This document shows positions 42,752-47,645 of a DNA stretch of 64,000 nucleotides, one piece after another (within the stretch, counting starts at the first letter, position 1; each line of letters starts with the position of its first letter). The stretch spans positions 32,001-96,000 of the forward strand of contig CAVUWV010000011.1 in NCBI GenBank assembly GCA_963745075.1, given 5' to 3'. Both the position numbers and the translations under genes were made by a program. This DNA comes from Candidatus Hydrogenedentota bacterium. GTDB lineage: Bacteria > Hydrogenedentota > Hydrogenedentia > Hydrogenedentales > SLHB01. The notes beneath the pieces were generated by a model, which was not told where the DNA came from, ran no database searches, and saw only the letters and a program-made list of their open reading frames with translations.

Positions 42752-43135
42752 CTACACGTGACCGGCGGAACTTTGCGACTCTCCGCTGAGTCCCCCCGGA
42801 CTCGCCATCGGTCCGGATAGTTCCTGGGAACCGGCTCCGGGCGCTGCCGCCGAACGGTTCTGCGCCATTTCTTTCAATGCTTTTCCCGGCTTGAAGGTCC
42901 CGACCCGTTTGGCCGGAATCGGTACTTCCTCACCAGTTCGCGGGTTGCGTCCGATTCGGGCGTCGCGCGTTTTGACTTCGAACACGCCGAAGTTGCGGAT
43001 CTCGAGCCGATTTCCTTCGGACAACAACTGCACGACGCAATCCAACGTTGCCTGGACCACATCGGAGACTTCATTCTGCGTGTAGCCGAGCCGTTCGGCC
43101 ACGTCCACGACCAGTTCCCGTTTTGTCACACTCAT
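42752..43135 (-). CDS. HU/IHF family DNA-binding protein with low-complexity C-terminal tail
   Basis: TKRELV, EIRNFGVF, RIGRNPRTGE, FKPGKALK. Confidence 0.93.
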   Translation of the reverse strand: MSVTKRELVVDVAERLGYTQNEVSDVVQATLDCVVQLLSEGNRLEIRNFGVFEVKTRDARIGRNPRTGEEVPIPAKRVGTFKPGKALKEMAQNRSAAAPGAGSQELSGPMASPGGLSGESQSSAGHV

Positions 43136-43213
43136 GATTCTCCCGACTCCACCATTGGCGACACCATACCACGGCCGCCGCGTTGTTGCGCGGCCGGTTC
43201 ACCCCCGTCGACA

Positions 43214-43784
43214 TTAGCCCATCAAATCGTGCCAAGCCTTGCAGTACATCTCGCTGATTGGATTGTCCGTCAACATCAAGCACCGCAACGATGATTGCGA
43301 TCACGATGACGATGATCAGATTCCTGGTTCCTTTGGACATCCCGGCGGACTTGATTTCAGGTTGTGCGCTGCCGACATATACTTTTTCGCCGGCTTCGGC
43401 GCGGGTCTTCTTGTCTTCGATTCCGCCGAGGGTTTCGTTGATCGAGATGAACGCCCGGTGCCATTCATTCTGGAGCTTCTTGATAGCGACCTCTGATTGG
43501 GAATAGATCGCTTCGAGGTTGGTGGCTCCCGAGATGATATTCATGGTGTTCGAGTCAAACTTATAATCGGAGCCCAAACCCTCCTTGAGCACCTGATGCT
43601 CGCGCGCCAGTTTGCTCTTAATCTTGAGAAACTGGTTCTCGAGCTGCGCCTTGTTCACCCCCGGGCTCGGATAGGCGCTCAGAATCTGGTTGAACAACAG
43701 CCAGTCGTTCATGAACTCCTGGCACATCTGAATGTTGCGGTTGAGGGCTTCGATCGTCTTGAGTTGCTTCTTATTTTGGGCCAT
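43214..43784 (-). CDS. Hypothetical helical protein with C-terminal TM anchor, probably one extra base near 43278
   Basis: As read, the ORF overlaps HU by 65 bp. Removing one base after ...IIVAV gives LMLTDNPISEMYCKAWHDLMG* ending at 43214. Confidence 0.7.
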
Positions 43785-43938: not shown

Positions 43939-44504
<566 letters not shown>

Positions 44505-44508
<4 letters not shown>

Positions 44509-45986
44509 GATTCCAGCCCTTTCTCTGCAAACTCGACCGCTCGGAACAACGCCTTGGCCTTGTTGACGGTTTCCTCGAATTCCCGCTCGGGCACGCTGTC
44601 GTAGACGATGCCGGCCCCGGCCTGCACATATGCGATATGGTCTTTCAGGATCATCGTGCGGATGATGATGCAGGTGTCCATGTCCCCGCTGAAACTGATG
44701 TACCCGCACCCGCCGGAATAAGGGCCGCGCCGGAGCGGTTCCAGTTCGTCAATGATTTCCATGGCCCGAATTTTCGGCGCGCCGCTTACCGTACCCATGG
44801 GGAAAGTCGCGCGCAGGGCCTCGTAAGCGTCCGCGTCGTCCTTCAACGTCCCCTCGACCTCGCTCACAATATGCATGACGTGCGAATAGCGCTCGATGGT
44901 CATCATCCGGCTGGGGTGTACCGTGCCGGGCGTGCTGACCCGGCCCACGTCGTTGCGTCCGAGATCGACCAGCATGACGTGCTCCGCGACCTCCTTTTCG
45001 TCCGCCAGGAGATCCTTTTCCAGAGCTAGGTCCTCCTCGACCGTCGTGCCGCGGGGACGCGTCCCCGCGATGGGGCGGACCATGCAGCGGCGGCCGGTGA
45101 CCTGGGTCATGACTTCGGGGCTCGACCCGACAAGCGTGAAATCCGGGTAGCGCACCAAGGTCATATACGGGGAAGGATTGATGCACCGCAGGGAGCGGTA
45201 CAGATTGATGGGGCTGGCGTAGACCTTCCGTTCAAATCGCTGCGACAGGACCACCTGGAAGACGTCCCCGGCGCAGATGTACTCTTTGGCTTTCTTCACC
45301 GCATCGCAGAAACCCTCGCGCGTAAAACTGGACTTCACTTCCGTGTCCGGTTCCCCTGAATGGATACGTTCCGTGCTGACGATCAGGGGCTGCTTCAGCG
45401 TGTCGTTGAGTTCGTGAATCTTCCGGACCGCGTCGTTATACGCCGCGACGGCGTCGTCTTGAACGTGGGCGTTGGACACGATCTTCAACCGGTTATTGAC
45501 ATGGTCGAAGATGAGGATGGTATCCGTGATCATGAAGTACAGGTCGGGGAGGTTCAGCGTGTCGGGATTCTCGTCGGGGAGCTTTTCGAAGAAACGGACC
45601 TGATCGTAGGACATGTAGCCCACGGCGCCGCCGTGAAACTTCGGCACGCCCTCCACCGCGACGGGCGTGTATTGGGCCATGAGTTTCCGCAGTTCGTCGA
45701 GGGGTTGCTCCGATTCCATCGATTTGTCCTGGCCGTCGCGCACGATCGTGACAGCTTTCCCCTTGGAGCGGAACACGATGGACGGGTTCGCGCCCAGAAA
45801 CGAGTAGCGGCCGATGGAGTCGGCCCGCTCCACGCTTTCCAGTAGAAAGGAGTAGGGTTGGTCTTTTGAAATCTTCATGTATGCCGTAACGGGAGTTTCG
45901 AGGTCCGCGACCACATCGCGGTACACCGGGACCAGGGAGCCCGGTTTCGCGATGCGCTGAAACTCCTCCAGTGTCGGGTGAATCAT
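44505..45986 (-). CDS. trpE: Anthranilate synthase component I
   Basis: LLES (Trp feedback site), [36 protein letters not shown]. Confidence 0.93.
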
Positions 45987-46016: not shown

Positions 46017-46400
46017 TCACGAAGTGGCCACGCCGTCGCCGTCCAACGTGACCGAACCGTCAAAGTCCACCTTGCGGTAGAAACAACTCGTCTCGTTGGT
46101 GTGGCAGGTCGGCCCCACGGGGTCGCATTTCAGCAGTAGCGCGTCGGCGTCGCAGTCCGTGCGGATTTCGAGGACGTGCAACACGTTGCCGGAAGTTTCT
46201 CCCTTGCGCCACAGCTTCTGGCGCGAACGAGACCAAAAACAGGCCTGCTTTTCACGCAAGGTGACCTCCAACGCTTCAAGGTTCATGTAGCCGACCATCA
46301 ATACCTGCCCGGATTCGTAATGCTGGACCACGGCGACAACAAGCCCCTTATCGTCCAGCTTGATCGTATCGGTCAGGGTTCTCGAATTCTCGGCGTTCAT
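46017..46400 (-). CDS. hisI: Phosphoribosyl-AMP cyclohydrolase
   Basis: VLMVGYMN, FWSRSRQKLWRKGETSGN, DCDAD, CHT..SCF; GGAGAGG SD. Confidence 0.95.
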   Translation of the reverse strand: MNAENSRTLTDTIKLDDKGLVVAVVQHYESGQVLMVGYMNLEALEVTLREKQACFWSRSRQKLWRKGETSGNVLHVLEIRTDCDADALLLKCDPVGPTCHTNETSCFYRKVDFDGSVTLDGDGVATS

Positions 46401-46548
46401 GACATTCCTCTCCACGTGCGTTGCGGGCTCGGAAGACCCTTCTATTTCCCTCTCGCGAAACCGGTTGCAGCAGCGATCGCGGAAGGCGAACGAGGCCGTA
46501 TCGCGATTTCGAAAGTCGGGCAAACAAGAATACGAAACAGGAATAGAT

Positions 46549-46602
46549 TCAGGAATGGGTATAGTGACGCCATCGGTGGTGGGAAAGCGAATGTGCCGGC
46601 AT
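46549..46602 (-). CDS. Putative His/Trp attenuator leader peptide MPAHSLSHHRWRHYTHS
   Basis: GGAGG SD 7 nt before ATG; 5 His and 1 Trp codons in 17; stop lies 148 nt upstream of the hisI start, same strand. Confidence 0.75.
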   Translation of the reverse strand: MPAHSLSHHRWRHYTHS

Positions 46603-46656
46603 CACGAGTCCTCCAAGGGCGCGGTGCACACTGACACCGCAATCAACGTCTAATGC

Positions 46657-46686
46657 ACTATCGCACAGAGTATGCGCACGTTTCAA
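46657..46686 (-). promoter_or_regulatory. Putative promoter for leader-hisI-trpE-trpG
   Basis: TTGAAA-N18-GATAGT with extended -10 TG on the minus strand. Confidence 0.4.
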
Positions 46687-46742: not shown

Positions 46743-47645
46743 TTATGGGCCGGATGCGGGCTTCTCGTTGTCCTCGGCGGGGGATTCCTGGTCCGCCAGG
46801 GAGTCGAAAGACGTGTCTTCGTCGGAGGAAGGTTCCGAATCCAGTTCGATGGGTTCCGATTCCGCTTTGGGCAGGGCGTCGTCCGCGTCCCAGGCCACGG
46901 CCAGTTCCGGTTCGTCATCGACATGGCCGGTGAGGGATTGCTCCTCTTCTTCGGCGGCTTTGACGGACTCCTCGTAGGTCACGAGATCTTCGGAATCAGG
47001 ACGTGGGGCCGGTTCCGGAACAAGCGCCTCATCGGCCGTCATGGGTTCGTGGACGGATTGCCGTGCGGGCGCCGCAATCTCGGCCGCAACAGGCGGACTC
47101 TGCATTTCCGCCGCCGGCTGCGCCGCGCTTTCCGTATTGACAATATTTACCGACACCTCGCCAATTTCTTCGGCCCCGATTACGCGCCGGGCCAACTCGT
47201 CCAGGTAGGTTTTCAACTGTGTGGAAGTCTCGCGGACACTCGCGTCCGCGGGATTCAAGAGATGCACGTCGGCATGGACGTTGGCTTTGTCAGCCGCCTT
47301 GGTTGGAGTGAGGTGAACCGTCCCTTTCTTTACGACGGGAATCTTGGTGAATGTCTTGTTCAGCGTGGTCGCGATGGGATCAAGCTGGATCGTCACGGGC
47401 CCGGTATCGTCGTTAAATCGTAGTTCCCGTGACCGCCGCCGCCGGTTTCCCAAAGGTAACAGGGCGAAGATGGCCAGTGCGGCGGCGACACATCCGATGG
47501 CGATTCGAAGCATGGGATTGGGTTGCGGAAGCTGAGCGACGATTGTCTGGTAAAGGCCGCTCAAGGAAAACACGGCGATCGCCGCACCGCCCGCGAGGAG
47601 CGCAATGCACGCCAGCTTCTGAATAATCGTCTGGAGGATTCGCAT
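46743..47645 (-). CDS. AmaP-like membrane anchor protein with acidic tail
   Basis: Two N-terminal TM segments, then GPVTIQLD...VSVNI alpha/beta domain; downstream of accC. Confidence 0.55.
   Translation of the reverse strand: MRILQTIIQKLACIALLAGGAAIAVFSLSGLYQTIVAQLPQPNPMLRIAIGCVAAALAIFALLPLGNRRRRSRELRFNDDTGPVTIQLDPIATTLNKTFTKIPVVKKGTVHLTPTKAADKANVHADVHLLNPADASVRETSTQLKTYLDELARRVIGAEEIGEVSVNIVNTESAAQPAAEMQSPPVAAEIAAPARQSVHEPMTADEALVPEPAPRPDSEDLVTYEESVKAAEEEEQSLTGHVDDEPELAVAWDADDALPKAESEPIELDSEPSSDEDTSFDSLADQESPAEDNEKPASGP

Follow-up and report, generated by a model that had tools for sequence, protein, structure and literature searches.

A conserved trp-type leader ORF with a CGA-UGG core, likely an attenuator, precedes hisI-trpE-trpG in Hydrogenedentota

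Textbook attenuators derive their sensitivity from runs of the cognate codon. The enterobacterial hisL leader carries a run of His codons, and in the at operon of Bacillus subtilis a tryptophan T-box is followed by rtpLP, which contains three Trp codons. The leader ORF described here lies in a 64,000-nucleotide stretch of DNA from a Candidatus Hydrogenedentota bacterium (the window; genome G000). It resembles enterobacterial trpL (RF00513) in being a Shine-Dalgarno (SD)-led short ORF directly before trpE-containing genes, in placing its Trp at about codon 10-11 with a CGN codon next to it on the 3' side (as L423 shows), and in a predicted helix that includes the Trp codon; a conserved short ORF with a Trp codon was indeed found upstream of the trp genes. 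However, the window leader has one Trp codon where trpL has tandem UGG, this codon is preceded by an invariant CGA, the unit includes hisI, and there is neither a terminator/antiterminator pair nor an Rfam hit. As in hisL, the His codons of the leader are enriched in frame and a his gene follows, whereas there is no His run (median 2, scattered), hisI is the only his gene preceded, and the fixed codon is Trp. Relatives of the motif in Clostridia also lie behind a T-box, similar to the B. subtilis at operon, whereas the window locus gave no match to a T-box (RF00230; Stem I with specifier loop, antiterminator).

Two further groups of described leaders are relevant. According to the excerpted text of PMC13434334, Trp codons mediate regulation in the Pseudomonas leaders trpL1/trpL2 (RWRWRA). 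These share an Arg-Trp-Arg core before trpE with the window leader, and related gammaproteobacterial leaders have CGA-UGG-CG in common with it, but the Pseudomonas leaders as excerpted there have two Trp codons preceded by CGT or CGC, show no His enrichment, and belong to another phylum. In addition, tnaC, speFL, cruR, and mgtL are uORF-controlled Rho-dependent attenuators in the excerpted review PMC12360218, and Rho-dependent attenuation is predicted for actinobacterial cys leaders in the excerpt of PMC1262725. The window leader is like the tnaC type and the cys leaders, as described in these excerpts, in combining an ORF without an intrinsic terminator, a pyrimidine-rich tract, and a rho gene in the genome. 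The same review excerpt describes tnaC and speFL as stalling at the stop codon in the presence of the metabolite, via a conserved peptide, whereas the window leader and its relatives keep only Arg-Trp, with 0-9 codons between Trp and stop, and no conserved arrest peptide was found at the stop codon. Because the operon under the window leader is biosynthetic, stalling would be expected upon shortage, unlike in tnaC and speFL. The table of Rho attenuators in PMC12360218, in its excerpted form, contains no trp biosynthetic operon like that of the window. We consider the window leader to be a trp-type leader and likely an attenuator, lying outside the classical families.

The leader ORF, its locus, and its relatives

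The features of the locus are listed from upstream to downstream.

46657..46686, minus strand: predicted sigma-70-like promoter, TTGAAA-18-GATAGT, TG-extended (sequence scan)
46610..46614, minus strand: Shine-Dalgarno GGAGG of the leader ORF, with a 7-nt spacer to the ATG
46549..46602, minus strand: leader ORF (trpL-like), 17 codons, ATG at 46602, TGA ending at 46549
46567..46575, minus strand: CGA-UGG-CGU core, Arg10-Trp11-Arg12 (conservation across leaders)
46406-46413, minus strand: SD of hisI, GGAGAGGA (sequence)
46017..46400, minus strand: hisI, phosphoribosyl-AMP cyclohydrolase (NCBIfam NF000768, over cut-off)
44505..45986, minus strand: trpE, anthranilate synthase component I (NCBIfam TIGR00564, over cut-off)
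43939..44508, minus strand: trpG-type glutamine amidotransferase (NCBIfam TIGR00566, over cut-off)

The ORF encodes MPAHSLSHHRWRHYTHS, with 5 His and 1 Trp, the latter at codon 11 and six codons ahead of the stop. In G000, 148 nt separate the leader stop from the hisI ATG, and the trpG start overlaps the trpE stop (ATGA). A first-pass annotation of this DNA had proposed an SD-led ORF containing His and Trp before hisI-trpE-trpG, with which the sequence and the NCBIfam matches agree. The promoter that it placed at 46657-46686 is likewise plausible, as one sigma-70-like site was found upstream of the leader against 0.2 expected from shuffles. A looser promoter match, counted without a shuffle control, is present upstream of 16 of the 29 leaders that lack a preceding hisF and 6 of the 26 that have one. 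No leader was found before the trpD-C-F-B-A cluster of G000.

Several observations concern the neighboring genes. Upstream of the leader, window positions 46743-47645 (minus strand) encode an AmaP-like protein with a long acidic tail, scoring below the NCBIfam cut-off; the gene closes an efp-accB-accC run and replaces hisF as the upstream neighbor in the window's genus and some others. After trpG, positions 43071-43784 (minus strand) encode a protein of ~190-240 aa, without NCBIfam or Pfam matches, ahead of an IHF/HU-like gene and tatC-tatB, an arrangement kept in about half of 20 relatives checked. While hisF and hisI are present in G000, TIGR00070 gave no full-length hisG match there, which may reflect the 89.7% complete assembly or a divergent HisG.

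Within G000 alone, 39 of 4084 short SD-ATG ORFs contain an in-frame CGA-TGG, so a single such ORF is within chance, and the leader is accepted as real because it is conserved across relatives. We compared 61 genomes, namely G000 and 60 relatives of the same order. hisI was matched in 59 (G024 and G031, with no hisI match, were left out), and trpE came directly after it in 53 of those 59. A short ORF with CGA-TGG was present ahead of 50 of the 53 hisI-trpE loci and 5 of the 6 stand-alone trpE loci, giving 55 leaders from 43 genera and 12 families. The leader was absent in G010, G040, and G041 among the relatives' loci examined; the contig of G033 ends too early to show it, L050 was scored as a miss with a contig ending 156 nt upstream, and L067 was left out because its trpE is cut. 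The search upstream of the genes in relatives that the first-pass annotation had suggested thus recovers the ORF, and, judged by this conservation, the leader ORF is real and conserved.

The six genomes with an unlinked hisI separate the two possible partners of the leader, which was found before trpE in 5/6 and before hisI in 0/6. The unlinked hisI genes are divergent (36-50% identity), and retention at trpE is therefore the stronger half of this linkage test. The leader does not stay with the his gene but follows trpE.

Apart from the Arg-Trp core, the leaders vary considerably. The N-terminal halves of the 55 leaders are unrelated, and the leader stop-to-gene spacers range from 58 to 343 nt, whereas most leaders share a GGAG-type SD, 36/55 have Trp at codon 11, and 41/55 have six codons from Trp to stop. 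A single Trp is present in 45/55, and tandem WW in 0/55. It had been suggested that the single Trp could be incidental; this is contradicted by the relatives, in which Trp is the sole invariant sensing codon (55/55) and always follows CGA. Tryptophan is very probably the primary signal sensed by the leader. As a separate observation, the leaders L028, L029, L037, and L038, from two families, terminate in CGA-UGG-UGA: Trp is the final codon before the stop, and several His codons precede it.

Histidine codons of the leader

The first-pass annotation proposed that the leader may integrate His and Trp starvation, and named retention of both codons in relatives as a check. The Trp codon is retained throughout, whereas the five His of the window's genus are atypical, the median being 2 His per leader (43 genera). 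Nevertheless, with one leader taken per genus (43), the leader frame contains 90 His codons, compared with an average of 15 in the other two frames. The excess lies on both sides of Arg-Trp: 40 in frame against 22 in the other two frames combined before it (29 against 22 when the W-2 position is omitted), and 50 against 8 after it. In the CGA-UGG leaders of Gammaproteobacteria and Clostridia, which precede trp genes only, His amounts to 1.8% with no frame bias. As His is enriched in frame here and not in the trp-only leaders, it is not a by-product of base composition. Moreover, upstream His is more frequent in leaders with a short stretch after Trp (2.14 versus 0.69), and only 1/43 leaders has no His at all, compared with 4.6 by permutation.

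These data would fit a dual sensor, in which a shortage of either His or Trp turns on hisI-trpE-trpG, with both codons serving as stall sites. Such dual sensing would be an addition to Trp sensing and not an alternative to it. However, the His codons occupy no fixed position and form no run of consecutive codons; adjacent HH occurs in 8/43 genera, at least 4 His in 4/43, and 22/43 have no His ahead of Arg-Trp. All five leaders without hisI keep His (1, 1, 3, 2, and 2; mean 1.8 versus 2.3), and no his gene other than hisI was found under the leader, with hisF upstream of the leader in 26/55 and elsewhere otherwise. In addition, two of the His positions fall where the RNA may pair: at W+2, CAC matches a GTG that precedes the AUG (11/12 GTG cases), and at W+5, CCAY complements the Trp codon. 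This candidate second helix is 76.7% paired, with one side that never varies. The in-frame enrichment speaks for the proposed integration, while the leader tracks trpE and keeps its His without hisI, and we regard dual sensing as possible but tentative.

The CGA-UGG codon pair within and beyond Hydrogenedentota

CGA-TGG (Arg-Trp) is present in 55/55 leaders and is their only invariant core; CG follows the Trp codon in 46/55, and the residue after Trp is Pro, Cys, or stop in 9/55. CGA makes up 10.7% of the Arg codons in G000, and the other Arg codons of the 55 leaders are CGA in 9/84 cases. As the ORF picker favored Arg-Trp ORFs, a frame-free count was added to remove this bias: CGA precedes TGGC at 51/163 upstream sites, compared with a 4.3% background, and CGATGG is present in 55/59 upstream windows, with the caveat that related genomes are non-independent and p-values are overstated. 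The motif is in frame within an SD-led short ORF at fixed spacing. Three explanations for CGA were tried and rejected. CGA recoded as Trp, which would make an ordinary WW leader, is contradicted by CGA standing for Arg at 52/55 conserved TrpE sites; a second ORF from the AUG inside CGAUGG would run from 4 to >150 codons, with no excess over the third frame; and base pairing does not account for the A of CGA, which lacks a partner common to the three phylum sets.

The tRNA-Arg genes of G000 have the anticodons ACG, CCG, CCT, and TCT, and no tRNA-Arg TCG was found in this 89.7% complete genome. In five further genomes, tRNA-Arg ACG was detected in 5/5 and TCG in none (pattern search and ARAGORN), and tadA was matched in 5/5. 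The presence of the ACG tRNA and tadA together with the missing TCG suggests that CGA is read by I:A wobble, likely through tRNA-Arg ICG. In the excerpted text of PMC4046918, where the hisL leader served as the assay, CGA is slow in the Salmonella his leader, and the excerpt of 10.1101/755652 reports that CGA in the P site of yeast ribosomes distorts the A-site codon. By analogy with this P-site effect, which is known from yeast only, CGA before UGG may act as a decoding brake that lengthens the wait at a hungry UGG, a role that we mildly favor.

A GTDB-wide pattern scan yielded at least 80 readable loci. Among the matches listed, at least 14 lie ahead of hisI-trpE or trpE, 12 of them titled Hydrogenedentes and one titled Nitrospiraceae with a hisI that is 80% identical, and at least 2 lie before trpB in Clostridia, behind T-box sequences. 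At one such clostridial locus (L072), the T-box RF00230 scores 112 bits. An SD-led Trp uORF was found at 47 of 96 evaluable clostridial trpB loci, 40 of these uORFs being distinct, and the 49 other loci, having none under the rule used, were left out. CGA precedes Trp in 29/32 distinct single-Trp uORFs but in only 2/8 tandem-WW uORFs, while CGA accounts for 28/1410 Arg codons (2%) of the clostridial trpB genes. Of the three single-Trp uORFs without this CGA, two resemble chance ORFs, and one clostridial leader uses AGG before Trp. The arrangement at L069, L072, and L193-L297 is a T-box, then a short Trp uORF, then trpB, with A-rich tails. Predicted ribosome-binding site (RBS) access for the clostridial leaders gave no stall-linked opening (0.54 stalled versus 0.58 free).

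In Gammaproteobacteria, CGATGG lies no more than 200 nt from trpE in 42/53 and 16/29 loci of two samples; L362 and L393 were left out because the edge of the locus is too close to the start of trpE. When distinct Arg-Trp leaders are counted, those with one Trp have CGA in 32/36 cases and those with two or more (W-R-W) in 20/20, and the retention of CGA in the W-R-W leaders indicates that CGA is not simply a substitute for a second Trp. Two gamma single-Trp leaders carry CGC, and the Pseudomonadaceae RWRWRA leaders have CGC or CGT instead of CGA (also in the excerpt of PMC13434334). The Arg-Trp-Arg leaders of L304, L306, L308, L314, and L335-L418 end ~40-70 nt before trpE, often as ...DFRWRR or WRW; their UGG follows CGA, their tails are C-rich, and they are apparently relatives of the Pseudomonas RWRWRA leader. 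A 30-genome cross-phylum trpE panel had CGA-TGG ORFs near the gene in 5 genomes. From these, L300 was removed, as its ATG is probably the trpE start; L314, titled Acidiferrales and with relatives overlapping those of G108, was counted as Gammaproteobacteria; and the CGA-TGG ORF of L322 is distant, at -1272. With these hits dropped or reassigned, we make no claim for the motif in Acidobacteria or Chloroflexota, and nothing convincing was found in the remaining phyla of the panel. Separately, the Blastocatellia trpE locus L318 has an SD-led 28-codon ORF whose last codons are tandem Trp, ~50 nt upstream of trpE; it may be a WW leader, and no terminator is obvious there.

The conservation of the core could instead mean that CGAUGGCG is kept as an RNA or peptide signal, that is, a factor site, an overlapping AUG, or an Arg-Trp-Arg pause motif. 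In Hydrogenedentota even the third position of the codon never changes, more than peptide identity by itself would require; moreover, an AUG lies within the hexamer, and R-W-R fits the +X+ motif (PMC12583479). However, the motif always keeps the frame and a fixed spacing within a short SD-led ORF, the frame opened by the inner AUG varies in length and does not outrun the third frame, Trp is followed by Pro, Cys, or stop in nine cases, and the clostridial constraint on CGA relaxes exactly when a second UGG is present. We judge such a signal to be improbable compared with a CGA-UGG decoding role.

A wider reading is that at least three phyla share a CGA-UGG-CG codon-pair device, to which Hydrogenedentota add His codons and Rho for a dual His/Trp readout. 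In it, I:A wobble in the P site would let one Trp codon replace a tandem run, although we hold the reading as a whole to be rather unlikely.

Output, proposed mechanism, and meaning

Three further elements of the window bear on how the leader may act.

46499..46548, minus strand: candidate Rho loading (rut) site, a pyrimidine-rich tract with C>G (composition)
46597..46605, minus strand: 5' arm of the predicted start:Trp helix, GUGAUGCCG, including the start codon (covariation/shuffles)
46564..46572, minus strand: 3' arm of the predicted start:Trp helix, UGGCGUCAC, Trp-Arg-His codons (covariation/shuffles)

The pyrimidine fraction of the tract is 0.66 in the window and 0.69 on average over the 55 leaders, compared with 0.50 +/- 0.08 in 674 control gaps, and C exceeds G in 52/55 leaders versus 46% of controls. 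A C-rich, G-poor tract thus follows the uORF, as judged from composition only, and the spacer is never shorter than 58 nt. A rho gene is present in G000 and in 18/21 Hydrogenedentota genomes. Likewise, the one gamma genome tested has rho, and gamma tails have C>G in 32/40, whereas the A-rich tails of Clostridia go with a rho match in 0/4 genomes (MAGs that may be incomplete). Across the three groups, the C/U tract goes with rho, which favors Rho-dependent attenuation; by analogy with the known uORF-controlled attenuators, we lean toward it as the likeliest output. In most leaders, a ribosome at Trp11 would stand 21 nt upstream of the tract and shield no more than the approach to it, which makes occlusion geometrically not obvious, and the predicted accessibility of the tract barely differs between states (0.51 versus 0.47).

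For the predicted start:Trp helix, 80.6% of cells are paired across 36 leaders, a value reached in 2/500 shuffles, and 12 cells changed on both sides. The columns are mostly fixed by coding, a +3 slide scores similar covariation, and whole-leader folds are no more stable than shuffles (z 0.01 and -0.51). We regard the support for this modeled helix as moderate.

Two other outputs were weighed against Rho-dependent attenuation. In a translational output, the leader or tract would pair with the RBS of hisI or trpE, and a stalled ribosome would free it. While the leader end CAUUCCU of the window genome complements AGGAAUG at the hisI RBS, the predicted RBS openness over 55 loci is 0.40 for a ribosome at Trp, 0.41 for one at the stop, and 0.40 for no ribosome (p=0.61), the window RBS is predicted to be less open when the ribosome is stalled (0.25 versus 0.52), and the spacers differ as widely as noted above, and we give this output little credence. 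Classical attenuation, in which the predictions would have overlooked a weak intrinsic terminator with its antiterminator, is equally doubtful: U-rich stretches are common past the stop (U 36%), and in 11/55 leaders a U tract is preceded by a weak terminator-like hairpin (-8 kcal/mol or better), but no conserved intrinsic terminator was found, the remaining 44/55 including the window genome lack such a hairpin, the same scan gives -26.4 kcal/mol for the classical WWW attenuator L066, the whole-leader fold is unexceptional, and the leader has no match in Rfam. NCBIfam and Pfam gave no match for the leader either. L066 itself belongs to the second trpE copy of G029 and comprises a leader of 22 codons, three of them Trp in succession, together with two strong terminator-like hairpins; it adjoins a divergent trpE, and the main trpE of G029 has a single-Trp leader.

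The ORF, its conservation and codon constraint, its linkage to trpE, the composition of the tract, and the genes for rho, tadA, and tRNA-Arg ACG are what we observe; from them we infer translation of the leader, stalling, a role of CGA, Rho action, and any His response. On balance, we favor a ribosome-dependent tryptophan attenuator. When Trp is short, the ribosome would wait with CGA, read by tRNA-Arg ICG, in the P site and UGG in an empty A site; the stalled ribosome would deny Rho access to the C/U-rich tract, allowing read-through by the polymerase. When Trp is in excess, the ribosome would finish the leader and leave, the start:Trp helix could fold, hiding the leader AUG and limiting ribosome reloading, while the tract, now free of ribosomes, would be loaded with Rho, which would halt transcription before hisI-trpE-trpG. 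Through the scattered in-frame His codons, His shortage might act likewise; whether or not it does, we treat this weaker second input as conceivable, slightly short of an even expectation.

In the full-text literature searched, on the level of titles and opening abstracts, neither the leader nor the CGA-UGG rule nor a dual His/Trp leader is described, although subscription-only comparative papers could differ; a literature search for Hydrogenedentes together with leader peptide gave 0 results. In contrast to the codon runs of textbook attenuators, one Trp codon seems to be enough here, and the same synonymous codon, CGA, is fixed before Trp in three unrelated phyla. A single synonymous change would therefore provide a sharp and cheap test of codon-pair context as a bacterial regulatory part. 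Moreover, CGA-UGG offers a search motif for terminator-less trp leaders that are missed by current Rfam, NCBIfam, and Pfam models. For the organism, the leader likely switches the genes on when tryptophan is short and possibly when histidine is short. If the proposed output is true, a biosynthetic Trp operon would be under Rho control, and if the His codons work, the leader would be a natural two-amino-acid sensor spanning separate pathways.
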